Below are positions 2,645 through 57,987 of a stretch of 64,000 nucleotides of DNA, piece by piece; positions within the stretch are counted from its first letter, which is position 1, and every line of letters begins with the position of its first letter. Origin of the DNA: Klebsiella phage KPN8. Location: sequence record OP079919.1; one strand, 5' to 3'. The position numbers and the translations under genes were made by a program. The notes beneath the pieces were generated by a model that was not told the DNA's origin, ran no database searches, and worked only from the letters and a program-made list of their open reading frames with translations.

Positions 2645-2761
2645 ATGAATATCATAATGCCATTAAAGCTACTCGGAGGGTTACTTATCCTGGGAGTGGG
2701 TTTTGGATTACTGGTTTATCTCATTGTTAAACTCTCCGTTAAAATGGCGTATAAAAAATGA
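2645..2761 (+). CDS. 38-aa hydrophobic micro-protein (MNIIMPLKLLGGLLILGVGFGLLVYLIVKLSVKMAYKK)
   Basis: Below the ORF-track cut-off. SD TAGGAGAT 5 nt upstream of the ATG. Its stop TGA overlaps the ATG of the downstream gene (ATGA at 2758). Single predicted TM helix. Confidence 0.45.
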   Translation: MNIIMPLKLLGGLLILGVGFGLLVYLIVKLSVKMAYKK

Positions 2762-3225
2762 GTGAAGAAGAGCTGTCATTAGGTTATATTTCGGTTAAAG
2801 TCATTCCCACTCAGGAAGGGATTCTTAAAGATAAGGTGTTGGATGCAGGCTGTCTTCCGTTAGATGAAGGGTCGTACCACGCTACGCTTATTTTTGATAT
2901 TCATCAGGATGGCGTCATTCCCAACGTACCTATGATTCCTGAAAAGATCTTCGAGGGAAAGGTTATCGGAATCAAGGAACTCGGAGAGCGTAAAGGAGAT
3001 ATTATCTCAGCCGTTGTACTCGAACTGGATTCTCCTGAACTGGCAGAAGAACACGATCGGTTAATACAATGTGGGTATGGTCATTCCTATCCGGATTACA
3101 TCCCCCATATTTCGCTCGCTTACAAGGTCACAGAAGAGCAAATGGAAGATCTCAAACGACAGTGTGAGTCGCTTATTGGTAAAACGTTCTACTTATCCGG
3201 AGAAAGCATCGACTGGATAGATTAA
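2758..3225 (+). CDS. 2H-phosphoesterase superfamily protein (LigT/CPDase-like; Acb1-like candidate)
   Basis: 155 aa with two H-x-T/S-x motifs flanked by hydrophobic residues (YHATLIF near residue 51, PHISLAY near residue 117). Spacing is about 66 aa, typical of the 2H fold. Confidence 0.6.
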   Translation: MSEEELSLGYISVKVIPTQEGILKDKVLDAGCLPLDEGSYHATLIFDIHQDGVIPNVPMIPEKIFEGKVIGIKELGERKGDIISAVVLELDSPELAEEHDRLIQCGYGHSYPDYIPHISLAYKVTEEQMEDLKRQCESLIGKTFYLSGESIDWID

Positions 3226-3238
3226 GAGGTAAAGGGGT

Positions 3239-3667
3239 ATGCCTGATAAACTTACTGTATCACTTTTTAAGCTTATAAAAAACCACACTGGGTTAACGTT
3301 AAAGGAAGGCGAATTCTCTTTAACGGGAGAAAGACCCTTTTGGTTCAGAATACCTCCTTTTCCCCTTAACCCTAGTTCAAGAGAGAGATTGAGAGATCTC
3401 TTTCAAGATAACTTTGATGTGACTGTAGTTGATTATGTTGACGATTACCAGATCATATTCAGCCAAATTGAACCAACAACTTCTCGTCGTATAAAACGCG
3501 TCAGGAACATCCTAGATGTGTTAGAAAGAGAGTACGGTAGAAACTGTCTCAGACCAGAAACCGGTAGAATCTTGAGCGGATATTACTCTACCCATAAAGA
3601 CAGAATAGAACAGGAAGAACTTGCTTATAATAAAAAGATTTTAAATGAAGCGTTACGAAGACGTTAA
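3239..3667 (+). CDS. hypothetical protein
   Basis: 142-aa ORF. SD GAGGTAAAGGGG upstream. Confidence 0.5.
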   Translation: MPDKLTVSLFKLIKNHTGLTLKEGEFSLTGERPFWFRIPPFPLNPSSRERLRDLFQDNFDVTVVDYVDDYQIIFSQIEPTTSRRIKRVRNILDVLEREYGRNCLRPETGRILSGYYSTHKDRIEQEELAYNKKILNEALRRR

Positions 3668-3708
3668 TCTTATGCAATATTTTTAATCTTAAAACGTGGG
3701 GTGGGTAA

Positions 3709-4029
3709 ATGACGTACAATGAAGTCGAGAAATATCTGGAAATGGGAGAGGCCGTCTCTAGGCGTAGTTGGAAAGCGAACGAAGCGGTTTATTTAGAGCC
3801 GACGACGTTACTTAATCCAGCGCACTATCCTGAGTGTTTAAAAGCCGCAGGTATTAACTCCCTTTTGAGAGTCGATCGACATTTAGTGCGTGTTACCGCG
3901 AGTAACACTGTTGAGCGTTTTATTCCCAACTTTGTAGAAAGAAACGAAAACGATTGGTACGTTAAAAGTTATACCTTCGAACAAAATAAAGCATTACCAG
4001 AACATAATCAAGCACAAGAAGTCGCATAA
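3709..4029 (+). CDS. DUF2829-like protein (Tad2-like candidate)
   Basis: N-terminal MTYNEVEKYLEMGEAVSRRSWK fits the DUF2829 N-terminal signature (F/Y-x-E-A/V-x-x-x-L-x-x-G-x-x-V-x-R-x-x-W). C-terminal FIPNFVERNENDWYV fits the DUF2829 C-terminal W/F-x-P-S/N-x-x-D-x-x-A/N-x-D-W-x-V signature. Confidence 0.55.
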   Translation: MTYNEVEKYLEMGEAVSRRSWKANEAVYLEPTTLLNPAHYPECLKAAGINSLLRVDRHLVRVTASNTVERFIPNFVERNENDWYVKSYTFEQNKALPEHNQAQEVA

Positions 4030-4034
4030 TAACA

Positions 4035-4045: not shown

Positions 4046-4060
4046 TACACTTAGATTTTA

Positions 4061-4089
4061 ACCAGGAGAGGCGTAAGCCTCTCCTGGTT
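4061..4089 (+). terminator. rho-independent terminator (ACCAGGAGAGGC-GTAA-GCCTCTCCTGGT) plus TTATTTTA
   Basis: 12-bp perfect inverted repeat followed by a T-run. Confidence 0.65.
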
Positions 4090-4163
4090 TATTTTACATG
4101 TATTCTTTTTTGGATCGATATTATTTATGTGTAAACCTCAATAACTTTTTAGGAATCAACATC

Positions 4164-4379
4164 ATGAACGGTCTTTTTGGAACAGGTTGTTTGCTGTTAG
4201 GTGCTGCAGTGTATTTCTTCCTGAAGTACCTGGAACTGCGTAAAGATTTTAAAGAGAATAAGATTAAAGACAAGGGTCGGGCGTCTGGGTATAAAAATGC
4301 CTATTTCTCTTTAACCATTTGTGTTTTGGGTCTGGGTGTCTTTTTAATGGTTAATGGGACTCTGTTGGAGATCAGATAA
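4164..4379 (+). CDS. small membrane protein (two predicted TM segments)
   Basis: Start chosen at the ATG preceded by the TTTTTAGGAATCAACATCATG motif. This is an in-frame later start within track ORF 4098..4379. Confidence 0.5.
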   Translation: MNGLFGTGCLLLGAAVYFFLKYLELRKDFKENKIKDKGRASGYKNAYFSLTICVLGLGVFLMVNGTLLEIR

Positions 4380-5280: not shown

Positions 5281-5299
5281 TTTAGGAAACACCATCATG
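5281..5299 (+). promoter_or_regulatory. representative instance of the recurrent translation-initiation motif TTTAGGAAAC-ACC-ATCATG
   Basis: Same motif at more than 20 gene starts (see findings). Confidence 0.6.
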
Positions 5300-6052
5300 A
5301 ACATCAATCAACTGCCAGAGAATCATCACGTCATTTCTTCTATGGTCAATCCGTTTGACCCTAACGAAGAATTGTTCTTCGTTACCCATCCTCGTGTAAA
5401 TACTTACCTGGATCTTGATGTTTGGTTCTGCGATATGGGTACTGGAGACATGAGGGTAATCGAGTCTTACAGTAAAGTATCCGACGTTCGGCTGCTTGGT
5501 TATATGGAAGGGCACGTTGCTAACAATCCGGATCAATTTCTTTACCCCACAGTTATTACCCCTCTTAGCCTGCGAGAGACTGAGATGGTCGTAGATGGCG
5601 TTCTCGGCGCTTTCAATCCTTCACCTCTTGAAAGAGCTAACGCCAGTAAATCTCTTCATCACCCTTCGCCAGAGGAAATATCCGATGGGGCATTTAAGGA
5701 GTACGAAGCGAGGAAAGCGGCTTTGAAAGAACTGCTGGAAAGCGGAGGTGAGATTAAACCAATTCCGAAAACGGTTTACTACACTAAAGAGTTTTCTGAT
5801 GCTTTAGAGGGCGTCCGCGCTGAACAGAGAGAGGCGACTGACCAACAAAGTTCCAAAATCCCCACTGAGTCTAGCGTAACCGTGACTGACCTTGGTGACG
5901 GATTTTCACGGATAGAAAAAGTAATCGGGGGAAGAACCTTGGTAAGTTACGATGAAAAGGCTCACATTCCTTTTCCAAGAAAGCGTAAGCCCAAGAAACC
6001 CAACCATAATCTTAACGCGATCATGGGTTTGTTAGCGAGGGCCAAGAAGTGA
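5297..6052 (+). CDS. hypothetical protein with basic C-terminal tail (PRKRKPKKPNHN)
   Basis: 251-aa ORF preceded by the TTTTAGGAAACACCATCATG motif. Confidence 0.55.
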   Translation: MNINQLPENHHVISSMVNPFDPNEELFFVTHPRVNTYLDLDVWFCDMGTGDMRVIESYSKVSDVRLLGYMEGHVANNPDQFLYPTVITPLSLRETEMVVDGVLGAFNPSPLERANASKSLHHPSPEEISDGAFKEYEARKAALKELLESGGEIKPIPKTVYYTKEFSDALEGVRAEQREATDQQSSKIPTESSVTVTDLGDGFSRIEKVIGGRTLVSYDEKAHIPFPRKRKPKKPNHNLNAIMGLLARAKK

Positions 6053-8195: not shown

Positions 8196-10076
8196 ATGAC
8201 CACACCAACTCAACTACCGATACCCAGTAGCAATTTGCTGGATTCGAGATTTAACTTTGAGAAGTTAGACCAGATAGTAAACTCAGATGCCGATTTCTAT
8301 TTGGACCGTTTTGGCAAACAACGTCTTACCGTTTTGGGCGCCACCAATCAGCTCATCCAAAGCCTGAAAGATCAAACTGGTGCCAACAATGTAACCTACG
8401 TCAAATCCAAGGTGGATAAAGTACTGTCATCGATAGGGTATTCCCTTGACGTCATTCCAATGAATATCTTTGACAAGGCTTATTTGTGTTCGGGAACTGA
8501 CAACCCAGATCCTAATACTTGGATCTGGACCGCCGCCCTGCAGGGCGTTTTATCGGATATCGCTTCTTATAAGCTTTTTACCCTCAACGGAAATGACTAT
8601 TATACAACTTTCTCCCTACGAATACCTGGAGGGGTTTATCAGATCGACGATCTGGTTAGTTTGGGTAAGGTAGCAGGGACTGGAGGAGGAGCATCCTTTA
8701 GGACCAACATCGTTATCAACGGAGATGGAAAAAGCAGTTCGGTTCTTCGTCTTATAGGTGATGATAAACAATTGTTTAAATTCACAGAAAGCCGTTTAGT
8801 CATGAGGGATATAGGGCTTCAAACTAACGGGGCTCGTAACATAGGGATGGAATTAGGCGATCAAAATAATTGGGTCCCGATGGCCCACTCCCATCTTGAC
8901 AATGTTTCGATTACCGGATTTTGTCGCGGATTGCTAATAAGCCATTGCTTTGACAGCACGTTCGATTCTTTATTCATATCCGAGATAGCCGATACGGGTA
9001 ATGCGGTTATACCCGCTACCGGTATTGAAATTGCGCAGTTTTTAGGAAAAGATTCCTCTAACAATCCAGATAACTCTAACCAACTGACGTTTATTAACTG
9101 TGTAGTTGAGACGGCTAGGACCGATAACGCTATTTTGTTTTACGTCAACGGAATTAGTAAAAGTTATCCCCACCACGCCATCAACTTCTTAGGTGGGCAC
9201 CTGGAAACCCATAGACGGAACACGGTCTGTTATAAATTTAACAACATGGCCCTGTCAACCTTCACAGGAGTGACATTCAGTCAGAACGGCACTGATTCTA
9301 CTAACCCTGTAAACGTTGGGGTAATAACTGACTCCTGGAATATTATCTTTAATGGCGGAAGAACAGTAACCAATAATGCTAAAAACACTTACGATGATAC
9401 TTGGGATAAATTGATAACCGTAGCGGGATCTAGCATGGGGATCACGTACATGAATCATCATTTTATTACCCCATACCAGACGTATTCTTCGTATAACCGT
9501 AATGCCAACACCGTGTTCAATTTTACCGGGGCGACCGCGGGAATAAACGCCATCGATGCCGATCGCTGTAGATTGAACGACTTCACGTTCAAGCCGTTCA
9601 CCAAATCTATAGAAATAACCAGAATGGATTTGATTACTCAGCGTTTCAGGATATCCGTAAACACTTCTGGTAGTCTGGTTTTCGCGTACTCTAATGATGT
9701 TACTGGCGCCGCCGCTATGACGGATTTGGTAACCATCACCAATACAGGGAATGCGACTTTTCTTGGGTCCGTTACGGCAACTAACGTAACCGGGACGTCC
9801 GATGAGAGGTTAAAAACAGAAATAGGAGAAGTTGATCAAGTTTTAATTGATGTTGTTAAAAGTCTACGGCCTAAGAAGTATCGACTGAAAAACGACCCCC
9901 AAAACAAAATTAGAGTGGGATTCATCGCCCAAGACCTAATAGAACTTATGGATAAAGCTGGATTGGATTTCAAGAAATACAGTATTATCGCAGAGTTTAA
10001 TATTCCTGGGGATGATTCAGAAAACACGTATTATTCCTTGGACTATGATGAAATAATGTTGTTAAGATCCTTGTAG
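8196..10076 (+). CDS. tail spike/fibre protein 1 with conserved N-terminal anchor and C-terminal intramolecular-chaperone (S74-like) domain
   Basis: Its N-terminus MTTPTQLPIPSSNLLDSRFNFEKLDQIVNSDADFYLDRFGKQRLT is shared with eight other genes in this window. The C-terminus DERLKTEIGEVDQVLIDVV...GFIAQDLIEL...YSLDYDEIMLL matches the auto-cleaving chaperone domain known from endosialidase-type tail fibres. Confidence 0.8.
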   Translation: MTTPTQLPIPSSNLLDSRFNFEKLDQIVNSDADFYLDRFGKQRLTVLGATNQLIQSLKDQTGANNVTYVKSKVDKVLSSIGYSLDVIPMNIFDKAYLCSGTDNPDPNTWIWTAALQGVLSDIASYKLFTLNGNDYYTTFSLRIPGGVYQIDDLVSLGKVAGTGGGASFRTNIVINGDGKSSSVLRLIGDDKQLFKFTESRLVMRDIGLQTNGARNIGMELGDQNNWVPMAHSHLDNVSITGFCRGLLISHCFDSTFDSLFISEIADTGNAVIPATGIEIAQFLGKDSSNNPDNSNQLTFINCVVETARTDNAILFYVNGISKSYPHHAINFLGGHLETHRRNTVCYKFNNMALSTFTGVTFSQNGTDSTNPVNVGVITDSWNIIFNGGRTVTNNAKNTYDDTWDKLITVAGSSMGITYMNHHFITPYQTYSSYNRNANTVFNFTGATAGINAIDADRCRLNDFTFKPFTKSIEITRMDLITQRFRISVNTSGSLVFAYSNDVTGAAAMTDLVTITNTGNATFLGSVTATNVTGTSDERLKTEIGEVDQVLIDVVKSLRPKKYRLKNDPQNKIRVGFIAQDLIELMDKAGLDFKKYSIIAEFNIPGDDSENTYYSLDYDEIMLLRSL

Positions 10077-10080
10077 TTTG

Positions 10081-10160
10081 GGAAATTGGGGGCGTATTTT
10101 TAACTAACGTACCATAACGTCCCCCCCCCACTCCAATTTAGTCAAACAAAGGGTGTTATG
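10081..10160 (+). repeat. conserved ~80-bp upstream element, copy A, containing a C9 tract (10121..10129) inside an inverted repeat AATTGGGGG / CCCCCAATT
   Basis: Aligns along its length with 22505..22580. Both copies end in ...AGTCAAA(C/T)AAAGGGT...ATGATGAC, the start of a tail-spike gene. Confidence 0.8.
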
Positions 10161-12299
10161 ATGACGACTCCAACTAAGAACGACATTCCAAGCAATAATT
10201 TGTTGGATGCTCGTTTTAACTTTGAAAAGCTCGATCAGATTGTTAATAGCGACGCGAACTATTACCTTGATCGATTTGGTAAACAACGACTCACTTCGGC
10301 CGGATTGGAAGATTTAGCCAGACGATTATCTGAAGATTATGAATCCACCCTATCTAATCAGGATGGGTATAAGAAAATGGGGATGGTGTCTGATTTTACT
10401 ACTCTCAGAACTATCGCCCCAACAATGGAAGGTCAACGCATTCTGCTCAGGTCGGTTGACGCTGGTTCGAATAATGGATCGGGAGAGTTTATAGGACATT
10501 TAGGGAGCAATGGGGTTGACGACGGGGTTAATGTCGCGGTGGGATCCAACTTCTATTGGGAGAGGCTTTCGACTGATTTTGTTAAATCTTCTTCTATAGG
10601 TGATTACACTCGGATTAACTCCTTTATTTCAGCCGGAAATAAGAAGATCACTGTCGATGCCGATCTCAGCGGGTGGCTTAACGTCAAAAGTAACACCACG
10701 ATAACTTTTAACCCATTGTGTCGGCTGATACCTGATACCGATGACAAAGTCGGCATAAGTATTAGAGGAGCCGCCCCAACCTCCTATGTTAATCTAGCTA
10801 CTGATGCATTAGGGATAGATGGCTCAATTACCACCACTAATGACGTTTTTAACATTGGTGATTGGCTGGAAATTAGATCCAACAAGGTTCTTCCCGGCGC
10901 GAATTTTTATCAGGTTAAGCAATCTGTTTTACGCAAAGTGCTTCGTAAAACACAAAATGGAAATGGAACTTGGACATACCGTCTCCACAGTAGTTTAGGT
11001 TATAACTTTAACGTCAGCGACGGTGCTTCCGCTGGGGTTGCGACAGTATTGGAAAATATTGTTATCGATGGGGCTAACTTAAATAAAGACAATTTCACCA
11101 ATATCTTCACCATAGGGATAAACTGTTATTACGTTTATAACCTCACTATAAAAAATATCAACCTATTCGGAACAAAAGTAAAGGATTCTGCCTCAGACAC
11201 TCCAGGAAGATCCGGAATAAAACTGTATAATTGCGTTAACGTTAGAATCGATAATGTGAACGCCTCTTATATAGGGTGGTATGGTGTAGAGGTTATGGGA
11301 TGCAGTGAAAACGTAGATGTAAATCGTTTATACGGTGTGGATTGTCGACATACCGTTTCCATGAACTGGATCGAATCTGGCGACCTTTATGGTGGGCCTA
11401 TGTGGGTTTCGGTAAGGAACTCAGCAAGTCACGCTGCAAGATTAAGTGGGTTTGACACTCATGATCTAGGAAAGGGGATCGCATTTATTAATTGCCAGAG
11501 TTTCGATTCTGGTGATGATGGATTCCAAGTAAGGGCGATGGACACCGTTCTAATCGATTGCCATGCTGAAGGATCGACACTTGATGGCTTCGGCGGCGCT
11601 ACTGGCGCAAAGAACAGCAAATTAGTAAACTGTTCTTTCAACTACAACGTCAGATACGGAATTAATTTAGGTTATGAAGGCGGTATTGTTATCGACTGTG
11701 ACGTCGATAATAACGGTTACATGGGGATTTGTACCATCGGCGGACTCATTCAAGGAGGGTCGGTCACCAATAATTATCCGGCTGCTATCGATATAGGCGC
11801 CGGATTTAATGCCGCCCAAACCGATCTCAAAATCGATGGTGTTAGAATGCCCTCTTCGACCGCCCAGACAAAAATTTTGAGTTTTGCTGGTGACGCGGTA
11901 GCCGCTAACAACAAACCTGAGTTGGTTAGAATGGAAAATTGTTACGTTCCTGGTTACGGAAGAGATTGGGTCAGACTGGTATCGTTCACCGTCCAACCTT
12001 TACCCCCGGTGCTTAATAATAATCTACTTACTTCCAGCTTAACCTCCCCTGGAAAAATAAGCGGGCAAGTCCAATTATCTGCAGGGACAGCCACGGTGAC
12101 AACCACAGAGGTTTTCTCACAACTTGGTAGCGGTGCAAATGTTTTAAAATACTCATCGCAGATTAAGTTGAAACCTATCGCTCGTTCTGCCAATATAGGC
12201 GCTCATTATGTTTCAGCAATCAACAACGGGACGTCCTTTGTAATCAATTCAACCAATTCCTCGGATGGCTCGACCATTTATTGGGAAATAACACTTTAA
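10158..12299 (+). CDS. tail spike protein 2 (right-handed beta-helix depolymerase-like)
   Basis: Conserved N-terminus MMTTPTKNDIPSNNLLDARFNFEKLDQIVNSDANYYLDRFGKQRLT. Repetitive N/G/V-rich beta-helix-like segments (NVRIDNVNASYIGWYGVEVMGCSENVDVN). Confidence 0.75.
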   Translation: MMTTPTKNDIPSNNLLDARFNFEKLDQIVNSDANYYLDRFGKQRLTSAGLEDLARRLSEDYESTLSNQDGYKKMGMVSDFTTLRTIAPTMEGQRILLRSVDAGSNNGSGEFIGHLGSNGVDDGVNVAVGSNFYWERLSTDFVKSSSIGDYTRINSFISAGNKKITVDADLSGWLNVKSNTTITFNPLCRLIPDTDDKVGISIRGAAPTSYVNLATDALGIDGSITTTNDVFNIGDWLEIRSNKVLPGANFYQVKQSVLRKVLRKTQNGNGTWTYRLHSSLGYNFNVSDGASAGVATVLENIVIDGANLNKDNFTNIFTIGINCYYVYNLTIKNINLFGTKVKDSASDTPGRSGIKLYNCVNVRIDNVNASYIGWYGVEVMGCSENVDVNRLYGVDCRHTVSMNWIESGDLYGGPMWVSVRNSASHAARLSGFDTHDLGKGIAFINCQSFDSGDDGFQVRAMDTVLIDCHAEGSTLDGFGGATGAKNSKLVNCSFNYNVRYGINLGYEGGIVIDCDVDNNGYMGICTIGGLIQGGSVTNNYPAAIDIGAGFNAAQTDLKIDGVRMPSSTAQTKILSFAGDAVAANNKPELVRMENCYVPGYGRDWVRLVSFTVQPLPPVLNNNLLTSSLTSPGKISGQVQLSAGTATVTTTEVFSQLGSGANVLKYSSQIKLKPIARSANIGAHYVSAINNGTSFVINSTNSSDGSTIYWEITL

Positions 12300-12357
12300 C
12301 CTTTGCTGGATGGTGATTGGTCGACGCCGGTCTAAAACTAATTTGTTAGGGTCATTT

Positions 12358-12391
12358 AAAATCCAACCGGTCTTAAGACCGGTTGGATTTT
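12358..12391 (+). terminator. rho-independent terminator (AAAATCCAACCGGTCTTAAGACCGGTTGGATTTT)
   Basis: Perfect palindrome with a T-run, immediately downstream of the stop of tail spike 2. Confidence 0.7.
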
Positions 12392-12433
12392 ATGCTTACC
12401 GATATTTCAACCTTCCTGACCCGAGGAATAGCA

Positions 12434-14665: not shown

Positions 14666-14680
14666 CATTTAAGGTGTGAT

Positions 14681-16441
14681 ATGACGCTCCCAACTCAAAA
14701 CGCTGTTCCTAGTTCAGCTAAGAACGACCAGCTCTTTAATGCTGAAAAAATAGATCAGGTCGTCAATAGTGACGACCTCCAGTACACAGATCGCTTCGGT
14801 AAGAAGCGATTTACTTTCTCTGGTTTATACAACATAATCCAAACATGGGTTGCGAGTTTAAGTGATACCACCGGAGCAGGATCGGTCGGGATCGCGCAAG
14901 GGGGGTACATCCAGCAATCTCTTTTGGAAGTGACACCGATGATGCAAGGTGCCGTAGGAGACGGCGTCGCTGATGACTCACAGGCGTTGATCAAAACATT
15001 TACTACTGCTAAAACACTTGGATTGCGGGTTAAAATAGATCGCGCTTATCTTTGCTCCTCAGCGCTTGCCGTTTCTGGACCGCTATACTTAGAAGGAATC
15101 AACCCGGAAACAGGAAAAATTATTTTTACAAATAAAGATGACTTCGGTCTTTACATTACTCAGATCAAATCCACAGACTTCATAACCATAAAAAATATCA
15201 GCATTACGGCCGGAGCTAAAATCGTTAATCCAAAGGGCCTCCTAACCATCGACGGAAGCTCTCAATTAACAACTGATCAGTCGGCAGGCAAATACCTCTT
15301 AGCAGATAGGACAATCCGCCGCGGGCTGTTGGATAATGTTAATCTCGATTGCCTTAGTGGGAACTACGCGGTTAACTACCTTAACATTATTTCATGGATG
15401 AATTATTCCGTTAGAAACATATTGATAAGAGGGTCAAGGGACAACCTGTCGGCGCTCACTAATGGAATACTTTTAAACGGCGATGGTTTCCCCGTCGACA
15501 TCCACATGACCGACCTTTTGATGTATAACCTAGGTCGGGCTATTAACTCCGTGGATTACGTGGAAGGACTCCACATTTCAGAGTTTGAATTTGTAAACGT
15601 TTTAAGGGGGATTAGCGCCGATTACGACTCAAATTATTCCAAACTCAGCTCATCGGTATGCGGATGTTACGGACCTATGATTCACACGGGTCATGTAAAC
15701 CTGGGAACGATGACTGGCGCTGACTCATGCATTTACATTAAAAATACTGTCACTCCTCGTATCAAAGATCTTTTGCTTTTCAATAGCGCCGGCGCTGCCG
15801 TCACAAACAGTTACGGGGTTTACGTTTACGGATCAACCAGCGGTGGGGAAATATCCAGCGTTTATGTTGCGGGTGGTGGTGCCGCCAACACGAAGACCAA
15901 TAATTATTCAATTAGAGTATATGGCGCCAATGGATTAAACATCAAGGACTGTACCGGAAGCTATGCGGGAGCCGTAGTGTATCTTGAAGGGGTTTCCACT
16001 AACTGTGTCATATCAGGAAATAGTGGTATCAGCACCACTAACGTCGTTTATATTTTCAGTGCCAATAACGCCAACAATAAAATAACTTCTGATAACTCGG
16101 GAATAGGAATCACGGATAAGGTGGTCGGCGGAGATCCTAGCGGGTCTTATGTGGAACCTCTAATCTGGCAGAGGAAGTACACACTGAATTTAGCCGCGGC
16201 CAAAGATGCCGGGACGTCTTTCACTTTTAACGTCCCGATTCCCGGGGGAAATTTTGGTGTTGCTCCAGATGCCGCTTTCGCGACATTACCCTCCAATCTT
16301 ATCGGACAATTTTCATATAACCCTTCGGCCAGTTCAGCAACAAGTCTGAATGTAACCATTTATTTTATCTCGGCCGCAGCCATAGGGAGTTACGATATTT
16401 TAATTTCGGCAGCTGGTTTTGGCGTAAGCAGAACGCAATAA
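14681..16441 (+). CDS. tail spike protein 4 (pectate-lyase-3-like beta-helix)
   Basis: Conserved N-terminus MTLPTQNAVPSS...DRFGKKRFTFSGL, paralogous to spike 3. Motif QGAVGDGVADDSQALIKTF resembles the GxxGDGxTDD signature of pectate-lyase-superfamily phage depolymerases. Confidence 0.75.
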   Translation: MTLPTQNAVPSSAKNDQLFNAEKIDQVVNSDDLQYTDRFGKKRFTFSGLYNIIQTWVASLSDTTGAGSVGIAQGGYIQQSLLEVTPMMQGAVGDGVADDSQALIKTFTTAKTLGLRVKIDRAYLCSSALAVSGPLYLEGINPETGKIIFTNKDDFGLYITQIKSTDFITIKNISITAGAKIVNPKGLLTIDGSSQLTTDQSAGKYLLADRTIRRGLLDNVNLDCLSGNYAVNYLNIISWMNYSVRNILIRGSRDNLSALTNGILLNGDGFPVDIHMTDLLMYNLGRAINSVDYVEGLHISEFEFVNVLRGISADYDSNYSKLSSSVCGCYGPMIHTGHVNLGTMTGADSCIYIKNTVTPRIKDLLLFNSAGAAVTNSYGVYVYGSTSGGEISSVYVAGGGAANTKTNNYSIRVYGANGLNIKDCTGSYAGAVVYLEGVSTNCVISGNSGISTTNVVYIFSANNANNKITSDNSGIGITDKVVGGDPSGSYVEPLIWQRKYTLNLAAAKDAGTSFTFNVPIPGGNFGVAPDAAFATLPSNLIGQFSYNPSASSATSLNVTIYFISAAAIGSYDILISAAGFGVSRTQ

Positions 16442-16554
16442 TCTTTTAGTATTTAATAGATTGAGGGCGTGTAATCGATAATAACTGAGGGATGATGATT
16501 AAATTTATATTACGTCGACTTCATCCCAGATTGATCGTCATTTAGGAGTTTTCA

Positions 16555-18696: not shown

Positions 18697-18703
18697 TAAT
18701 TAT

Positions 18704-29338: not shown

Positions 29339-29614
29339 ATGAAATTTACTTCTGCTGTTGCAAAACTCAAACCCGGTTACGGGATTCAGTGCACCGATTG
29401 GAATGGTGCTAATCAATTTGTTTTTGATGCCTCTTTGACCATGTCTCTCGTTGAAGCACGCAAACAGGGATTCCCGGGCCCGGTTAAACTGAAGCCGGTT
29501 TACGTGTTGCATAACGCTAAAGGTGAGCTGCAACCTGGTTGGGTGCCGTCCCAGGGCGATCTTCGCAACGAGAACTGGATCGTTGTCAAAATCAAAGACG
29601 CGTTGGCGAAATGA
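29339..29614 (+). CDS. DUF2829-like protein (Tad2-like candidate)
   Basis: N-terminal MKFTSAVAKLKPGYGIQCTDWNG and C-terminal PGWVPSQGDLRNENWIVV match both DUF2829 signature blocks. 91 aa. Confidence 0.6.
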   Translation: MKFTSAVAKLKPGYGIQCTDWNGANQFVFDASLTMSLVEARKQGFPGPVKLKPVYVLHNAKGELQPGWVPSQGDLRNENWIVVKIKDALAK

Positions 29615-29937
29615 ACTACCATCTCTTCTTCGTCGTAGGATTGACGGTTTGTTTGATCGTTTTTAGTGTCTTTGACGATTACTACACGAAAAGAGCGATT
29701 GGGCTTAAAGGTTACGTTCCTTTCTGGGTCGTCGCCGTAATTCCAGGAAAATCCAAACTTAGTCTTAAACTGATTAAGTTTAAGATGACGTGTTATGTTT
29801 TAGTTTGGATTGCGTGGCTGGTCATTTTATCATCTCCGTTACCTTTTCTTGTTGCGTTGATGATGACGATCTTGGGATTGCTCAGTTGCATCATGTTAGG
29901 ATCGTTGCTTCACAACATCGCTCAATCTAAAAAATAA
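29611..29937 (+). CDS. small membrane protein (3 predicted TM segments)
   Basis: ATG overlaps the upstream TGA (ATGA). The track ORF 29539..29937 extends upstream in-frame, but the coupled start is preferred. Confidence 0.5.
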   Translation: MNYHLFFVVGLTVCLIVFSVFDDYYTKRAIGLKGYVPFWVVAVIPGKSKLSLKLIKFKMTCYVLVWIAWLVILSSPLPFLVALMMTILGLLSCIMLGSLLHNIAQSKK

Positions 29938-29988: not shown

Positions 29989-30912
29989 ATGCCCATCATT
30001 ATCGTTCCAGTTAGCGGTGGGGTGGAATCCACTGCTTTACTCCATAAAGCCTTACAAGGTGACAACGAAGTTCATCCTGTATACGTTGCTGTCAACGGCG
30101 ATCCCAGATCATCAGTATTTGATTTAACCGCAGCCGAACATATAGTGAATTGGTTTGAAGAACATAAAGGTGGTTACGTCGGGAGATTAAGACCCTTAAC
30201 GTATATGATCAATCCGGTTTTCTTTCATCTCCATAACAACAACAAAATAGAAAACACTCCGGCCAATTATGGAGTGACCCAACAATTTCAATTGGTTTAC
30301 AACATTAGTCTTCTTCGATCTAAATTTTGGGATTGTAATCCAGGTGTCTGGATTGGTTGGTTAAAGGAGGATGGCAATGAATTTTCTTTTAACGAATACG
30401 ATTTCTCGGCAGAGGAGTATAAGGAACTCTTAAAATTACCCGTGACGCTAGGGACGTTATCTAATATAGATAGAACGTGTAAGCCTTTTAGACCCCCCTT
30501 CTGGGAAATGACTAAATCCGATGTTTATCTAAGCCTGCCTGAAGAGCTTAAAACTTTAGTCGTTCCTAACGGTTCCGAGTATTATAACGGAGACGGTGAC
30601 TTGGTCAGAACGCCTTGGAAAGCTAAAAGGAAAGAATGGATCAATGCGAATATACCTATTAAAGACAGTTATGTGTTTTCAGCAGCTCAGATCTCCCGCA
30701 TAGGGCGATACGCCGGAAAGAAACTCTTGGGGAAAGATTTCAATCTCTCTCCTAATTACGACGCTTTAATCGAATTAGTTTATCGAGACTCTCGATGGCA
30801 CCCACTCCCCTTTACCAATAAAGACTTCTACACCATTTGTAGTGCGAATAACTTAAAAGCCATCGTCAGGGAAGCCCAACACAACATCCCTGCTATCAAA
30901 CTAATCGGTTAG
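29989..30912 (+). CDS. PP-loop ATP pyrophosphatase superfamily protein
   Basis: N-terminal IIVPVSGGVESTALLH is an SGGxDS-type PP-loop with Glu in place of Asp. The motif sits at residues 9-14, as in QueC/MnmA/PAPS-reductase-like families. The family cannot be assigned by eye. Confidence 0.55.
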   Translation: MPIIIVPVSGGVESTALLHKALQGDNEVHPVYVAVNGDPRSSVFDLTAAEHIVNWFEEHKGGYVGRLRPLTYMINPVFFHLHNNNKIENTPANYGVTQQFQLVYNISLLRSKFWDCNPGVWIGWLKEDGNEFSFNEYDFSAEEYKELLKLPVTLGTLSNIDRTCKPFRPPFWEMTKSDVYLSLPEELKTLVVPNGSEYYNGDGDLVRTPWKAKRKEWINANIPIKDSYVFSAAQISRIGRYAGKKLLGKDFNLSPNYDALIELVYRDSRWHPLPFTNKDFYTICSANNLKAIVREAQHNIPAIKLIG

Positions 30913-46104: not shown

Positions 46105-46722
46105 GTGGAAAAAACTATTTTTGACAAGATCGTCGACTGGTCTACTGAACGTAATATCATCACCGCGGGGAAGCCTTCCGGCCAAGTCCTTAAAGTCATG
46201 GAAGAAATGGGGGAGATTGCTGGCGGCGTTGCACGCAACAAACTCGATTTGATCAAAGATGCGGTGGGTGACGTATTGGTCATCATGACTAACGTTGCGA
46301 AGATGTACGGGGTTGAGCCGTCTTCTGTTATTACCTTTGACGAAGAAGAACGAGGAGGGCATTTTGAATGGAGCGCTGGTACGATTGGGTTGATCGCGGA
46401 CATGTACGCCTTTTGGGGGGAAGCTTTTAGCCTTGTAGAAGATTACGACGTCGAGCGTAAATTTACCGACCTAGAAGCCGTCTATTATCCGGTGCTCAAC
46501 ATCCTTTATGAAATCTCCCGCCGTTATAACTTTACGTTGCAAGAAGCTGTCGAAGCGTCTTACGACGAGATTAAAGATCGTAAGGGGGTTTTCTATAATG
46601 ACGTCTTTGTTAAAGAAGCCGACTTCACTCCAGCTTGGGCGGTTGAGACGTTAGCGGATAAAGGTCTGTCGATGTCGGCTCGCGGATATCTCTCCCATTG
46701 GTTGGCGAGACAAGCCGGTTAG
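46105..46722 (+). CDS. MazG-like nucleoside-triphosphate pyrophosphohydrolase
   Basis: GTG start. VLKVMEEMGEIAGGVAR...LIKDAVGDVLVIMTNVAKMYGVEP fits the all-alpha NTP-PPase (MazG) EExxE / DxxD motifs. Confidence 0.6.
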   Translation: MEKTIFDKIVDWSTERNIITAGKPSGQVLKVMEEMGEIAGGVARNKLDLIKDAVGDVLVIMTNVAKMYGVEPSSVITFDEEERGGHFEWSAGTIGLIADMYAFWGEAFSLVEDYDVERKFTDLEAVYYPVLNILYEISRRYNFTLQEAVEASYDEIKDRKGVFYNDVFVKEADFTPAWAVETLADKGLSMSARGYLSHWLARQAG

Positions 46723-53133: not shown

Positions 53134-53460
53134 ATGAAAGTAACGATTCAAGTACTCGAAGACAGAGAAGTCGATATCATCGAGGCTCTAGAAAAGTGTT
53201 TGTTCATCCCCCATTTCTATTTCGTACATCGGGGGCGCGATAAACGAGAATTCTTAGGGGAGGACGACGATTCCATTTTGATCATCTCACAGGAGTTGGT
53301 TGATTGTTGTCCTGAACTGGTCGTATTGGAATGCGGGGATTTGGAAAAACTGTGTTTCTCCCAACGACGCGCCAAAACCGAAAAAGAGGTTATTATCGAA
53401 TACCTCAAAGCCAATCGAGAAAAGATTATCAAAGTCACTGACTTGCCGGGGTACTATTAA
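53134..53460 (+). CDS. hypothetical small protein
   Basis: Coupled to its neighbours (TGAAATG). Confidence 0.45.
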   Translation: MKVTIQVLEDREVDIIEALEKCLFIPHFYFVHRGRDKREFLGEDDDSILIISQELVDCCPELVVLECGDLEKLCFSQRRAKTEKEVIIEYLKANREKIIKVTDLPGYY

Positions 53461-53993
53461 TGACCGCTCGTTATTTTGCCGGTGATTTCCATTTAGGAGA
53501 CCCCTCTATTATCAAATACCGTAAGCAGTTTAAAACGGTAAAGGAGCACGATGAATTTATCGCTGATACGATTTTGGTTAAACCTCGTGATCACGACATA
53601 CTAACGATCGTGGGTGACGGATTCATTAAACCAGAATCGTTGTTCATTCTGAAGAAGTTCCCGTATAAGAAACATCTTATCCCAGGGAATCACTGTATGG
53701 AGAAAGGCGTTAAAGTTACTGATCTCGCTGCTTTCTTCGACGTTGTTACCGGATCGTTTAAATGGAAGAGTGGGTTCTTCGTATCCCATGAACCTCAACA
53801 TCCTGATCATCTCCGAGGTCGCATCAATATTCATGCTCATTTGCATGATAAAGTGATTGAAGACGAACGTTATATCGGGGTGTCGTTAGAACAAACCGGT
53901 TATCGTTTAATCCATCACGATGAGATCTTATCTGGTTCTTATCGTACTTATCGAGCGCCAAGATTAGAAGATCATCTTCACGTAGGAAAATAA
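53460..53993 (+). CDS. calcineurin-like metallophosphoesterase (small, YfcE-like size)
   Basis: Motifs GDFHLGD, VGDGF, GNHC and IHAHLHD, in the order of metallophosphoesterase motifs I, II, III and VI. Confidence 0.55.
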   Translation: MTARYFAGDFHLGDPSIIKYRKQFKTVKEHDEFIADTILVKPRDHDILTIVGDGFIKPESLFILKKFPYKKHLIPGNHCMEKGVKVTDLAAFFDVVTGSFKWKSGFFVSHEPQHPDHLRGRINIHAHLHDKVIEDERYIGVSLEQTGYRLIHHDEILSGSYRTYRAPRLEDHLHVGK

Positions 53994-53995
53994 TT

Positions 53996-54256
53996 ATGGA
54001 TCTAGATAACGATATTGTTAGTAAAGAGCATCCCAAACCGATGAGTATAAGCACAGTGTATGGTGATGAGAAAGAAATAGCCTCTCGTGTGTGCGTCATC
54101 GACGCCTGCGTTAATTTCAGCAGGGCTATTGAAGAAGCATGGTTGAAATTACAAAAACCAGAAAAGGTAACAAAAGTCGATTTGAGCTTCGTTATGGAAG
54201 ATGGAAATACATGTGACATAACCGTGGTTAAAAAGATAGAAGATGAAGTATTGTAA
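53996..54256 (+). CDS. hypothetical small protein
   Basis: TAATTATGG overlap-type coupling. Confidence 0.45.
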   Translation: MDLDNDIVSKEHPKPMSISTVYGDEKEIASRVCVIDACVNFSRAIEEAWLKLQKPEKVTKVDLSFVMEDGNTCDITVVKKIEDEVL

Positions 54257-54332: not shown

Positions 54333-54677
54333 ATGAATCCATTTAACATTTATTTTTCTGCTTCTCCCCTGGGGTCCGCTATAGGGTTAGCGATCTTGCT
54401 AGTCCTTGGGTGGTTTTTTATTTACCGCAGCCCTACGGTGATTAACCAAGTTATCGGTAAACAGAAACGCGTCTACGTTGTTTTGTTCGTCCTGGTATTT
54501 TTTATCGGGAGTTGTTTTAATATAGGTACTCGGCAAGCTGAGCTTAATCGTTCTCAGTTCGACACCCAGATGAACACTGAGATCATCAAGAAATCACCTA
54601 CCTCCACGGAAGTCTTCGATGCCCGTGGTAACTTTAATCAAGCGTTAGATAAAGCAAAAAAGGAAAATGAACAATGA
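54333..54677 (+). CDS. membrane protein, probable partner of the SPFH protein
   Basis: Two TM segments. ATGA overlap with the downstream SPFH gene. Confidence 0.5.
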   Translation: MNPFNIYFSASPLGSAIGLAILLVLGWFFIYRSPTVINQVIGKQKRVYVVLFVLVFFIGSCFNIGTRQAELNRSQFDTQMNTEIIKKSPTSTEVFDARGNFNQALDKAKKENEQ

Positions 54678-55540
54678 AGAAACTTTTCTCAATTGTGGGA
54701 TTAGTGATGATTGCAACTTTACTCTCTGGATGCGGTCAGATTGTAGAACCTGGTTTTAAAGCCAAGTTCCTTTCTTCCAGCGGTTACAGTAACGAGATCA
54801 AGGAGCCGGGTAAATATCAAGTTTGGTGGGGCGAGAAGTTGATTAAACTTGATACCTCGACCAAAGCGATATCCATTCCTCTCACTGTTAAGATGGCGGA
54901 TGAAATGGATTTATCCTTTAGCGTTAACTTCCGTACCCGAGTCGGGGGTAACGATAAAGTCCTGAACGCCATGTTTAACGACATTCGACCTCAGGATACC
55001 GATAAGGGTCTGATCATCTCCTTAGATCAGGTATTCTCGGTTTACGGTAATGACGTAGTGAGTAACGTTGCTCGTTCCGTAGTGGGGAAATACAAAGTCA
55101 GTGAGGTCTCTAAAAACTACGACACGATCAACGAGCAACTTCAGGCTAAGTTAATCGAAGCGATGAAGAACAACCCGCTGGAAGTGTCCAACGTGACCGT
55201 CGCTAACATTACCTGGCCTAAAGTCATTACTGACGCCATCGAAAAGCAACAAGAACGTGAACTGGCAATCAAGACAGAAGAAAACCAGCAAGCGATAGAA
55301 ATGGTTAAACGCACTAACCAGCTCAAACTCGCCGAAGCTGACCGAGAGATCGAACTCACTCGAGCGAGAACCCTGCGAGATCAGAATGCCATTACCGCCG
55401 ATGGCTTAAGCGATAAACTCATCGCTTATAAAGCGTTAGAGGTTCAACAATCCATGACAGATAACAAGTCGGCGGTGTTTGTCCCTTATGAAGCGTTCAA
55501 TGCACCCGGATTGTCCAACCGCATCTTTAGTGCCAAATAA
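54674..55540 (+). CDS. SPFH/band-7 (prohibitin/HflK-like) lipoprotein
   Basis: Lipobox LLSGC after a hydrophobic leader. Central SPFH-like region. Long C-terminal coiled-coil AIEKQQERELAIKTEENQQAIEMVKRTNQLKLAEADREIELTRAR. Confidence 0.55.
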   Translation: MKKLFSIVGLVMIATLLSGCGQIVEPGFKAKFLSSSGYSNEIKEPGKYQVWWGEKLIKLDTSTKAISIPLTVKMADEMDLSFSVNFRTRVGGNDKVLNAMFNDIRPQDTDKGLIISLDQVFSVYGNDVVSNVARSVVGKYKVSEVSKNYDTINEQLQAKLIEAMKNNPLEVSNVTVANITWPKVITDAIEKQQERELAIKTEENQQAIEMVKRTNQLKLAEADREIELTRARTLRDQNAITADGLSDKLIAYKALEVQQSMTDNKSAVFVPYEAFNAPGLSNRIFSAK

Positions 55541-55548
55541 TTAACAAT

Positions 55549-55577
55549 TAATCTGGTTGGGCTCATCCAACCAGATT
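55549..55577 (+). terminator. terminator AATCTGGTTGG-GCTCAT-CCAACCAGATT
   Basis: 11-bp stem after the SPFH gene. Confidence 0.6.
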
Positions 55578-55603
55578 ACCTTTACTTTAGGAAAAAAAAT
55601 ATC

Positions 55604-56167
55604 ATGATCAATTGCTTGAGTGCCAATGAGTCAGAATTGTTTAAAAAGCAATGGAACGAATACGTAGAGGAAGGGCTTCCCGGACTCGATGAAAGAATGA
55701 AGGGCCCGATGCTGATCCTGAACGCAATACCTGGGGTAACGACCCGATTTTGTTGTTCCGGTCATACCTTTGAAGAAAGGCTATCATCTCACCCGACCAA
55801 AGTTTATTCTCGAGTACAGAAAAGGAATTTCATTTTTGTTGTTGAGGTGGCGCACCCAACCATTTTTTCAGTATTTGATAAGTTCTTTAAATCTTTAGAT
55901 GAGGACGAGTTTATTTTCTGCCGACCTTCTCTAGAGACCACTCTGCTTAAGAAAAACTTTGGTGGTCGTGAAGTATATCCGGTTTGGGTATTCGAAATGA
56001 ACTGGGTTTACGAACTTACCGAGGAGGAAAAAACAAAAGGGAGAGACGAGGTTCAAAAAGAACTGTGGGAGAGACTCCTCAGAGAACTTTTCCTTATTAC
56101 CTCCCCTGAAATTCGCAACGAATATTATTCCAGGTCGGTTTTTACTCATCCCCATCAACCTAGCTAA
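55604..56167 (+). CDS. hypothetical protein
   Basis: TTTACTTTAGGAAAAAAAATATCATG motif. Confidence 0.55.
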   Translation: MINCLSANESELFKKQWNEYVEEGLPGLDERMKGPMLILNAIPGVTTRFCCSGHTFEERLSSHPTKVYSRVQKRNFIFVVEVAHPTIFSVFDKFFKSLDEDEFIFCRPSLETTLLKKNFGGREVYPVWVFEMNWVYELTEEEKTKGRDEVQKELWERLLRELFLITSPEIRNEYYSRSVFTHPHQPS

Positions 56168-56181
56168 CTAGGGACTTTATC

Positions 56182-57291
56182 ATGTTTGATATCGGCATCG
56201 TCGTTGGTAAATTCGCCCCGCTCACTCAGGGTCATATCAACCTTATCACCCAAGCCTCCCTCCAGGCTAAGAAAGTTATCGTTGTGTTAAGTCACGACAG
56301 TCGCTGGTTAGCGCAACAATGTCCTCGTGATCAGAAGGCGTTGACGTTCACCAACCGTCTTCGTTGGTTACAGCAGCATTACGCCGATTCTGACCATATT
56401 GATATTAAATATATCATCGAAGATGACATCCCGGAATTCCCCAACGGATGGAGCGCTTACTGTAACCTCCTCAGGAAGATCTACACTGAGGAACAGCACA
56501 AGAAATATAAAGGAATCGGATCAGTCGACAACACTCGTCGGATTGCTCAGACCGTAGCCATTTTCAGTAGCGAAATCGATTACGATAAAGGCTACGAGGA
56601 GCATCTTCCTGAAGTCAGTCACGTCGTCGTTGACGCGCATCGTACGGCGGTTCCAATTAGCGCGACTAAAATTCGTGAGAATCTTTACGCCAACTGGGAA
56701 TACCTCCCTTCTATTGTTCGTAAGGACTACACCAAACGGATTGTCATCCTCGGTCAGGAATCTTGCGGTAAAAGTGTCATGGTCAAGAATCTGGCTAAGA
56801 TGTTTAATACGTCCTGGGTAGAGGAGTACGGTCGGACGTATTGTGAAACAGAGCTCTGTGGTTCAGAATCGACACTCCGTAGCGATGATTATCCTATTAT
56901 CGCTTATCGCCATAAGGAGCTGGAAATCCAGGCCATGCGCTCAGCCAATCGTATCTGCATCGTGGATACGAACGCGTTCATTACTGAATACTACCATCGG
57001 TTGTATGAAGGAAAACCTAACCGGATCGTTTCCGCAATTGCTGCTGAGGAAAACTACGATTTAGTTATCGTACTCAAGCCTACAGTGCCGTGGGTCGACG
57101 ACGGCCTTCGTAGTAATCCCGAAAGACAACGCACGACTGAACTATTTAATCTCATGTGTCTGGAGTTCCCTAATCAGCTCCCGGGAGGAAGAACGTTCTA
57201 TATTTCTTCCCCTGATTACAAAGTTAGGTTCGATCAGGCTTACGAGATTATCAAAACCTTTACCCAGCGTGTTAACTCAGGTGAATTTTAA
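56182..57291 (+). CDS. nadR: NadR-like bifunctional NMN adenylyltransferase / ribosylnicotinamide kinase (no HTH domain)
   Basis: N-terminal IVVGKFAPLTQGHINLI is the (H/T)xGH nucleotidyltransferase motif, as in NadR YPLHTGH. Mid-protein IVILGQESCGKSVMVKNLA is a Walker A motif nearly identical to the NadR kinase-domain P-loop. 369 aa. Confidence 0.8.
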   Translation: MFDIGIVVGKFAPLTQGHINLITQASLQAKKVIVVLSHDSRWLAQQCPRDQKALTFTNRLRWLQQHYADSDHIDIKYIIEDDIPEFPNGWSAYCNLLRKIYTEEQHKKYKGIGSVDNTRRIAQTVAIFSSEIDYDKGYEEHLPEVSHVVVDAHRTAVPISATKIRENLYANWEYLPSIVRKDYTKRIVILGQESCGKSVMVKNLAKMFNTSWVEEYGRTYCETELCGSESTLRSDDYPIIAYRHKELEIQAMRSANRICIVDTNAFITEYYHRLYEGKPNRIVSAIAAEENYDLVIVLKPTVPWVDDGLRSNPERQRTTELFNLMCLEFPNQLPGGRTFYISSPDYKVRFDQAYEIIKTFTQRVNSGEF

Positions 57292-57987
57292 ATGAAAGAA
57301 CTTTTTAGCGTAATCTATACTGATTTCCAGAGCGGATGGAGTCGTAAGGAATGGCTGTGGTTAGTCGTAGCCGTCTCGGCTGTTGTAGTTGGGAGTATCT
57401 CCGCTTCGCCACTGGAATTCTGGGCGGGTATATTCAACGTCGTCTGCGTTATTCTTGTTGCTAAAGGTCGACTCTCCAATTACTATTGGGGACTATTAGG
57501 GGTGGTTCTCTACGCGATCGTTTCCTACAAGCAACAACTCTACGGCAACATGGCGCTTAACGTCATTTACTTTGGATTCCAATTCTGGGGTATTTACGAA
57601 TGGCGTAAAACATTGCTGAATAAGACTGATGCTGGCGTTGACGTATCCGTTAAAAGACTGTCACTTCTCCAGTTCCTTCAGATGACGTTCGTTGTTTTGG
57701 CGGGGACCTTTGCAGTCAGTTTGTTCCTTCGTCATATCGGGGATAGCTCACCTGTATTAGATGCGTTTACGATGGTAGCGAGCTTAATCGCTATGGGCTT
57801 GATGGTTAAACAGTATTCCGAACAATGGTTACTCTGGATACTGGTCGATATCGCTTCTATTTACATGTGGGTCATTCCTGCTTTAGACCAACCTGGTTCT
57901 TGGTCCATGGTAGCGATGTGGACGGTCATCACCGGTAACGCGCTGTACGGCGCTTACATGTGGTTTATTGTTAAGATAAATAAATAA
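57292..57987 (+). CDS. pnuC: PnuC-like nicotinamide riboside transporter
   Basis: ATG directly abuts the nadR-like TAA (TAAATG). About 230 aa with 7-8 hydrophobic helices. PnuC-like size, topology and W/Y-rich helices (FGFQFWGIYEW). Adjacent to nadR, as in bacterial pnuC-nadR salvage. Confidence 0.65.
   Translation: MKELFSVIYTDFQSGWSRKEWLWLVVAVSAVVVGSISASPLEFWAGIFNVVCVILVAKGRLSNYYWGLLGVVLYAIVSYKQQLYGNMALNVIYFGFQFWGIYEWRKTLLNKTDAGVDVSVKRLSLLQFLQMTFVVLAGTFAVSLFLRHIGDSSPVLDAFTMVASLIAMGLMVKQYSEQWLLWILVDIASIYMWVIPALDQPGSWSMVAMWTVITGNALYGAYMWFIVKINK

Follow-up and report, generated by a model that had tools for sequence, protein, structure and literature searches.

Counter-defence gene families in a plastic arm of a nucleus-forming Klebsiella jumbo phage

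The window analyzed in this work, a stretch of 64,000 nucleotides from Klebsiella phage KPN8 (OP079919.1), lies within the plastic and largely non-structural arm of a jumbo phage of Klebsiella that is Miamivirus-like (Chimalliviridae), and it probably carries three or four independent counter-defence modules, all of already described families. The genes concerned encode a NadR and PnuC pair of the NARP3 type, an Acb1-like 2H phosphodiesterase, two Tad2-like proteins and a MazG-like pyrophosphohydrolase (Table 1). Membership in these families was observed directly, as were the catalytic and ligand motifs, the gene order and the conservation pattern. A preliminary description of the window, made from its letters alone, had proposed that the span from 2,645 to 57,987 is aimed at nucleotide-signalling immunity and at immunity that depletes nicotinamide adenine dinucleotide (NAD+). 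This target was borne out, as a counter-defence role has been established by experiment for the families of the Acb1-like protein, of both Tad2-like proteins and of the NadR-PnuC pair. Signal-based abortive systems operate in the cytoplasm, which, unlike the DNA, is left unprotected by a phage that forms a nucleus, so that such an arsenal would make biological sense.

By megablast, the two ends of the window were assigned to Klebsiella phage Miami (MT701590, 253 kb; ~94% identity), and four further relatives were recovered, namely phiKp_32, BUCTxx100, YC1 and Raoultella phage VB_ZK_P1. According to the NCBI taxonomy, Miamivirus belongs to the Chimalliviridae, the nucleus-forming jumbo phages, and Miami was described as a distant relative of Erwinia phage RAY in a chimallivirus core-genome study. 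The counterpart of the window comprises Miami genes 073 to ~169, the majority of which are annotated as hypothetical. For the window 98 open reading frames (ORFs) were defined, 97 of them on the plus strand. All 98 were compared by tblastn with the syntenic regions of the five relatives, and Pfam matches were judged against the curated bit-score cut-offs. No relevant addition came from screening all 98 ORFs with PADLOC and NCBIfam, and an Rfam search of the window returned no RNA family. One ORF matched the PADLOC model mad1 of the MADS defence system (1.4e-6).

The NadR and PnuC cassette

In the NadR-like protein, Pfam identified a CTP_transf_like domain (residues 6-166) and an AAA_28 domain (residues 186-329), and no helix-turn-helix (HTH) domain. 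The protein also matched TIGR01526 nadR_NMN_Atrans (1.3e-78) and, over its full length, PDB 9X6F, the crystal structure of Bas30_86 (E=6e-138). Its identity to the Bas27 homologue is 57%, and the GKFAPLTxGH and GxESxGK(S/T) motifs of the two proteins align. The gene that follows was assigned to Pfam PnuC (PF04973, 147.8 bits), and its product is 44% identical to the T5-like (Bas27) PnuC. The nicotinamide riboside contacts N45, Q94 and N180 of Bas30_87 correspond to N49, Q97 and D186 in the window (numbering checked on the Bas27 homologue). The NadR stop at 57291 abuts the PnuC start at 57292, in the order also found for bas27_0092 and bas27_0093 of phage TrudiGerster.

A pair of this kind, the PnuC-like nicotinamide riboside importer Bas30_87 and the HTH-less NadR Bas30_86, was described as NARP3 in the T5-like Escherichia phage TrudiRoth (Yan et al., Sci Adv, August 2026, PMC13464706; PDB 9X6H/9X6F), and NARP3 rescued phages from Sir2-HerA in experiments that included K. 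pneumoniae (PMC13464706). The cassette in the window shares with it the abutting genes, NadR then PnuC, a NadR without HTH that combines a nicotinamide mononucleotide (NMN) adenylyltransferase with a ribosylnicotinamide kinase domain and carries the GKFAPLTxGH and Walker-A motifs, and, in PnuC, the residues aligned with contacts N45 and Q94. It differs in residing in a chimallivirus jumbo phage instead of a T5-like siphovirus, in an 18-amino-acid insertion in NadR (residues 103-120), in the third nicotinamide riboside contact, which is Asp (D186) instead of Asn, and in a co-inherited ORFan (58013-58714) that T5-like phages lack, their PnuC gene being followed by tRNA genes. By analogy, PnuC would import nicotinamide riboside, which the HTH-less NadR would phosphorylate to NMN; NMN would then be adenylated to NAD+, and pools drained by Sir2- or TIR-type NADases could be refilled. 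The preliminary description had read the pair as a means of NAD+ rebuilding. This was right but is no longer new, as it has since been proved for the 57%-identical homologue (PMC13464706). With the window, the range of NARP3, so far T5-like phages, grows to include a nucleus-forming family, which agrees with the idea that even phages of this sort require defences against cytoplasmic, signal-based abortive systems.

NadR, PnuC and the ORFan together form a clean 2.6-kb indel (window 56111-58729) among near-identical genomes, which is present in Miami, BUCTxx100, YC1 and the phage analyzed here and absent from phiKp_32 and VB_ZK_P1. A third state was found in the metagenomic relative L012, where NadR is missing and a 27-amino-acid PnuC remnant stands alongside a gene 35% identical to the ORFan. 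This state indicates that the cassette decays by deletion and that the ORFan is not strictly dependent on NARP3, which weakens the idea of an obligate NARP3 partner. Homologues of the ORFan fell into eight clusters, all in Miamivirus-like contexts; its AlphaFold2 (AF2) model, built from 9 sequences, was unusable (pLDDT 45). Phage therapy is a prospective use of the Klebsiella jumbo phages in this clade, and the carriage of Acb1-like, Tad2-like and NARP3 modules by some of them, together with the presence or absence of NARP3 across the clade, predicts differing host ranges on CBASS, Thoeris or Sir2-HerA strains.

The same genes could be housekeeping or auxiliary-metabolic genes that are not directed at immunity. 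NadR and PnuC would then supply NAD+ to NAD-dependent phage enzymes, MazG would serve the house-cleaning of the nucleotide pool, the 2H enzyme would be a LigT-like RNA 2',3'-cyclic phosphodiesterase/ligase for RNA repair, and a PP-loop protein encoded between the modules would act in tRNA or nucleotide modification. NAD+ synthesis clusters including pnuC and nadR are frequent in jumbo phages and were interpreted as metabolic support (PMC11662467). However, a NadR-PnuC pair of 57-65% identity was directly shown to neutralize Sir2-HerA (PMC13464706), and NARP3 is dispensable in two sister phages, which suits an arms-race accessory better than core metabolism. Across all modules, we regard a purely metabolic role as unlikely.

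Just upstream of the NARP3 unit, a small membrane ORF and an SPFH/Band-7 gene (window 54333-55540) are shared only with Miami and BUCTxx100 and form a second, independent indel. For an 86-amino-acid ORF at 53996-54256, neither a family match nor a counterpart in any of the five genomes compared was found; where it lies, the relatives have a gene for a HigA-like HTH antitoxin.

Table 1. Features of the window that are discussed in the text, with the basis of each assignment.
Feature	Coordinates	Strand	Basis or remark
Terminator-like hairpin	2282..2310	+	Read from sequence; closes the upstream unit; terminator annotated at the same place in Miami
38-aa hydrophobic peptide ORF	2645..2761	+	Gene 1 of the operon; in 4/5 relatives
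Acb1-like 2H phosphodiesterase	2758..3225	+	Pfam Acb1, PDB matches, both catalytic motifs
142-aa ORFan	3239..3667	+	Between the Acb1-like and Tad2-like-1 genes
Tad2-like-1, divergent (DUF2829)	3709..4029	+	Pfam PF11195
Intrinsic terminator	4060..4089	+	13-bp stem and T run; closes the operon
Tad2-like-2, canonical sponge candidate	29339..29614	+	Pfam, solved Tad2 matches, ligand residues
Small hydrophobic ORF, probable membrane protein	29611..29937	+	Co-occurs with the PP-loop gene
PP-loop ATP-pyrophosphatase superfamily protein, rare family	29989..30912	+	SGGVES motif
MazG-like NTP pyrophosphohydrolase	46105..46722	+	Pfam MazG, PHROG 1992
NARP3 enzyme, HTH-less NadR with NMN adenylyltransferase and ribosylnicotinamide kinase domains	56182..57291	+	Pfam, TIGR01526, PDB 9X6F
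NARP3 transporter, predicted PnuC-type nicotinamide riboside importer	57292..57987	+	Pfam PnuC
233-aa all-helical ORFan	58013..58714	+	Same indel as NadR and PnuC

The Acb1-like operon and the two Tad2-like proteins

The Acb1-like gene belongs to a four-gene unit (2645-4029) that is bracketed by the upstream hairpin and a strong terminator. A 335-nt AT-rich gap lies 3' of the upstream hairpin, and the stop codon of the hydrophobic peptide ORF overlaps the Acb1-like start (ATGA). The Acb1-like protein scored 49.1 bits with Pfam Acb1 (PF23474, cut-off 27), whereas the generic 2_5_RNA_ligase2 model reached 20.3 bits, below its cut-off of 27, and the top matches among solved structures were the Acb1 chains 7T26 and 9Q2G. 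Both catalytic motifs are present as H41-A-T43 and H117-I-S119, the second with Ser for Thr, and these four residues correspond to the Acb1 tetrad H44/T46/H113/T115 (PMC9117128). On these grounds the family named in the preliminary description, an Acb1-like 2H esterase, was confirmed.

With Acb1 of phage T4 (gp57B) and Erwinia phage FBB1 (PDB 7T26/7T27; Hobbs et al. 2022, PMC9117128) the protein shares the ~150-amino-acid 2H phosphoesterase family, both His-x-Thr/Ser motifs and the PDYxPHI(T/S)L block. Unlike these, it carries HxS instead of HxT in the second motif, around which it is chiefly alignable, overall identity being low; its gene is conserved across a chimallivirus lineage and shares an operon with a Tad2-like gene in the Miamivirus clade alone. 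The enzyme would be expected to cut the 3'-5' bonds of cyclic oligonucleotide alarm signals, probably by metal-independent acid-base catalysis at the HxT/HxS pair.

Homologues of the Acb1-like gene were found in 180 phage records and are often annotated as 'RNA ligase'. Aphroditevirus chimalliviruses carry one as well (Pfam Acb1 57.8 bits), adjoining RNase H and without a Tad2-like neighbour, so that a conserved Acb1-Tad2 adjacency was rejected. A housekeeping function in RNA repair draws on this widespread annotation and on the RNase H neighbour in Aphroditevirus; the Pfam scores of the window protein, 49 bits for Acb1 against a subthreshold 20 bits for the generic 2'-5' RNA ligase, argue for the opposite.

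Both Tad2-like proteins passed the Pfam Tad2-like model (PF11195, cut-off 25), Tad2-like-1 with 29.9 bits over profile positions 1-72 of 73 and Tad2-like-2 with 52.7 bits over positions 1-73 of 73, and no pairwise similarity was detected between the two. Tad2-like-2 matched the solved SptTad2, SPO1 Tad2 and ModTad2. For Tad2-like-1, a search of solved structures by sequence gave no match, and homologues were found in this clade only. In HgmTad2, binding of glycocyclic ADP-ribose (gcADPR) is abolished by mutating W21/N22 or S90/T92/D93 (PMC10680739). When aligned with this site, Tad2-like-2 displays W21-N22-G23 and S-Q-G-D and keeps four of the five residues, with Thr replaced by Gly, whereas Tad2-like-1 has W-K and N-F-V-E at these positions and keeps the Trp alone.

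Both proteins thus resemble the Tad2/DUF2829 sponges (SPO1 Tad2, HgmTad2, SptTad2, MoTad2, Tad2_71; homologue AcrIIA7) over the full domain, and Tad2-like-2 also in the W-N-G and S-x-x-D of the gcADPR site. Tad2-like-1 departs from them by W-K-A, N-F-V-E and a C-terminal tail of 20 amino acids, and in Tad2-like-2 (91 amino acids) the large beta2-beta5 insertion, by which HgmTad2/SptTad2 bind cyclic dinucleotides, is missing (PMC10680739). Members of the Tad2 family inhibit CBASS, Pycsar and Thoeris types I, II and IV (PMC12393519). Judged by its residues, Tad2-like-2 could be a tetrameric sponge for gcADPR-type signals of Thoeris and possibly for cyclic nucleotides too. Tad2-like-1 is Tad2-like by fold family and should not be called a gcADPR sponge; it probably sequesters a different small-molecule signal, and the two divergent copies plausibly target different molecules. 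Of the two sponges proposed in the preliminary description, the one at 29339 therefore stands with its ligand residues, and the one at 3709 passes the Tad2-like model but lacks most gcADPR residues. No housekeeping role is known for Tad2-like proteins.

Between the Acb1-like and Tad2-like-1 genes lies an ORFan (3239-3667) for which a Pfam search gave no match and whose homologues, in the searches made, were confined to Miamivirus-like genomes. It was absent from the earlier list of candidates, and by guilt-by-association it is the best positional lead for a new function. A more far-reaching reading makes the operon a dedicated anti-signalling unit to which this ORFan and Tad2-like-1 would contribute new activities, such as a sponge for a signal for which no sequestration is known so far or a partner protecting the phage against decoy-nucleotide sensors (e.g. 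Panoptes); independently of this, the ORFan of the NARP3 indel would be a chimallivirus-specific third component that improves the working of NARP3, for instance one that generates or channels nicotinamide riboside. We consider this reading distinctly improbable.

In phiKp_32 an IS200/IS605-family TnpB gene (2898-4034) lies directly upstream of the Acb1-like operon, at the place of the window gap 2269-2644; none is present in the window.

MazG, the PP-loop protein and the distribution of the modules

The MazG call of the preliminary description was upheld at the level of the family, with 24.2 bits for Pfam MazG (PF03819, cut-off 22) and 1.1e-42 for PHROG 1992. There is one anti-defence precedent, Atd1 of Pectobacterium phage PcCB7V (Ho et al., bioRxiv 2022), a MazG-like pyrophosphatase that depletes (p)ppGpp and protects against TIR-STING. 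The window protein shares with Atd1 the MazG catalytic-domain family, at family level only, and with less certainty than for the other modules it could blunt alarmone-dependent suicide. However, MazG-like genes are generic in phages and were found in 1103 phage records from phages of every type, which agrees with a housekeeping role.

The PP-loop protein carries the motif V-S-G-G-V-E-S-T (residues 8-15), of which G11 and S14 did not vary among 30 homologues; this confirms the PP-loop enzyme of the preliminary description at superfamily level. Its own Pfam search gave no match; PHROG 8825 and, weakly, a QueC-like model were matched. An exhaustive HMMER search returned 34 representatives of the family among 1.8 billion proteins. 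A profile of 30 members matched the solved structures of TilS, LarE, QueC and Cap9 only over the motif, and a Pfam scan of the family gave weak matches to QueC, ATP_bind_3 and PAPS_reduct. The AF2 model (pLDDT 68.7, pTM 0.73) is disordered over residues 77-170, and Foldseek against the PDB returned ThiI and QueC (probability 0.92-0.99, TM-scores 0.25-0.33). Compared with QueC, TilS, NadE and other defined PP-loop enzymes, no full-length homology was found, similarity being confined to the first ~40 residues. A NadE-like NAD synthetase, which would tie the protein to NAD+, was rejected, as nothing beyond a rank-39 match to an NMN synthetase pointed to it. The protein can thus be placed at superfamily level only. 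The modelled fold resembles tRNA-thiolation enzymes and QueC, as a housekeeping function would predict.

The PP-loop gene and the small hydrophobic ORF in front of it are both missing from BUCTxx100 and VB_ZK_P1. Directly downstream of the PP-loop gene (just after window 30912), phiKp_32 has a second IS200/IS605-family TnpB gene (30037-31173), and none is found in the window.

The preliminary description had these functions stacked in one region, which was not borne out. The four systems lie at ~3, 29, 46 and 56 kb, spread over ~54 kb among ~98 ORFs, and that two of four fall within two gene slots of each other (~97 slots) is expected by chance with p ~0.23-0.25. About 20 kb of the span is taken up by host-range genes that the preliminary description had left unmentioned, nine consecutive tail-fibre/capsule-depolymerase genes at 8196-24311 (plus strand) and 26655-29225 (minus strand). 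Their products of 576-856 amino acids contain K1-lyase, Peptidase_S74 and beta-helix domains. Relatives share with them the N-terminal 8-28% alone, except that two are identical to phiKp_32 and one to Miami, which looks like modular swapping of receptor-binding domains. PhoH, dihydrofolate reductase (DHFR), two GNAT acetyltransferases, an SPFH protein and many ORFans are also encoded between the modules.

A further possibility, nearly as likely as not, is that there is no anti-defence island at all. The arm would then be hypervariable in the ordinary way and made up of small early or moron genes, with a few known anti-defence homologues among them by coincidence, and the ORFs named as candidates would be no likelier to be anti-defence genes than any jumbo-phage ORFan. 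The dispersal of the systems, their chance-level proximity and the share of host-range genes all favour it. On the other side, AntiDefenseFinder defines an island by known anti-defence genes at most 1 kb apart (PMC11724313), and the Acb1-like and Tad2-like-1 genes share a terminator-bounded operon in which 484 bp and one ORFan separate them, the sole tight association among the modules. To this extent the window resembles the phage anti-defence islands described (PMC11724313); it differs in that the other modules are 25-50 kb off and interspersed with the fibre, PhoH, DHFR, GNAT and SPFH genes. Four systems in 64 kb are also dense compared with phiKZ, in which one known anti-defence gene was detected (PMC11724313).

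The conservation pattern bears on both alternatives. For 62 (70%) of the 89 non-fibre ORFs, one or more of the five relatives lacked the ORF or carried a version <85% identical, and 41 were missing from at least one; a single missing-ORF case (53460-53993 in BUCTxx100) was an artefact of the locus boundary. The modules' known homologues mostly belong to the stable minority, which also suits an arm without an island. The Acb1-like gene (96-99% identity), the ORFan behind it (96-99%), both Tad2-like genes (97-100% for Tad2-like-2) and MazG (85-97%) were retained at 85-100% identity in all five relatives, and among the called modules presence varied for NARP3 and the PP-loop gene alone. Because they are conserved in all five, the Acb1-like gene, both Tad2-like genes and MazG are lineage core, not accessory. 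The 'accessory region' of the preliminary description thus holds for the arm, which is highly plastic, and fails for these genes. That they are conserved and not variable is a point for housekeeping, and that variability is so common as not to discriminate is one for the absence of an island.

Several observations weigh against counter-defence modules as the explanation. The modules are dispersed, and the single adjacency is not significant. MazG is near-ubiquitous in phages, and its link to anti-defence is weak because of the 1103 records mentioned above. The PP-loop protein is without an assignable reaction. Tad2-like-1 is devoid of four of the five gcADPR-contact residues, and the Tad2 family also takes in the anti-CRISPR AcrIIA7. 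Viral 2H phosphodiesterases vary widely in substrate, and an Acb1-like gene kept across this chimallivirus lineage, with RNase H as its neighbour in Aphroditevirus, would suit a role in RNA-end processing as well. The NAD+ salvage genes of jumbo phages have likewise been read as general metabolic support (PMC11662467). Independent counter-defence modules of described families nevertheless remain our favoured reading, in which the activities, substrates and infection roles are those predicted from sequence. No new kind of system is revealed and the surprise is modest; the use lies in annotation and in predicting host range for phage therapy.

BUCTxx100 (OR529409) was deposited as a Stenotrophomonas maltophilia phage, yet it is ~94% identical to Klebsiella Miamivirus genomes across the window, and its host assignment looks doubtful.

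Candidate ORFs between the modules and a shared start motif

Five ORFs (939-1817, 5297-6052, 37881-38756, 58013-58714 and 61087-62799) had been put forward as prime candidates for new anti-defence proteins, and none of them matched a Pfam or PHROG family. For 58013-58714 the proposal gains from its position exactly within the NARP3 indel, which also counts against the absence of an island. The other four have neither a domain nor a positional link to a known module, and a 58013-like gene persists in L012, which lost NadR and most of PnuC; both points suit an arm without an island. A check of the candidates by presence/absence variability, as had been suggested, was run on the five relatives and did not single out the five ORFs, because 70% of the non-fibre ORFs vary.

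Between genomes that are otherwise ~96% identical, 939-1817 is 42-46% and 5297-6052 is 37-75% identical. This divergence fits arms-race genes, but dozens of neighbours fit equally. Together with 25811-26608, 34911-35354, 35984-36391 and 36875-37402, these two are 37-66% identical to their positional counterparts in most relatives, with flanks of ~96%, and the six are either allelic replacements or very fast-evolving genes. Overall, the unassigned ORFs between the modules are weakly implicated in anti-defence, and 3239-3667 and 58013-58714 are two concrete ORFan leads.

The preliminary description had also noted many small genes that share one initiation motif. The motif is real: TAGGAA-N3-6-ATCATG occurs nine times against 0.07 expected, in all cases on the plus strand and at gene starts, and ATC precedes 20 of 97 starts. 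Eight of the nine occurrences stand at starts of the ORFs used. It marks no functional class and was rejected as a marker of anti-defence genes, being a general extended Shine-Dalgarno/start context on many genes. The ninth occurrence (4150-4166) lies inside ORF 4098-4379 and suggests that the true start is ATG 4164, which gives a gene of 216 nt as annotated in Miami and phiKp_32.

A 35-nt terminator hairpin at 59337-59371, downstream of 58814-59329, recurs as a 100% identical repeat downstream of phoH (~25160-25195), and the repeat is also present in the relatives.

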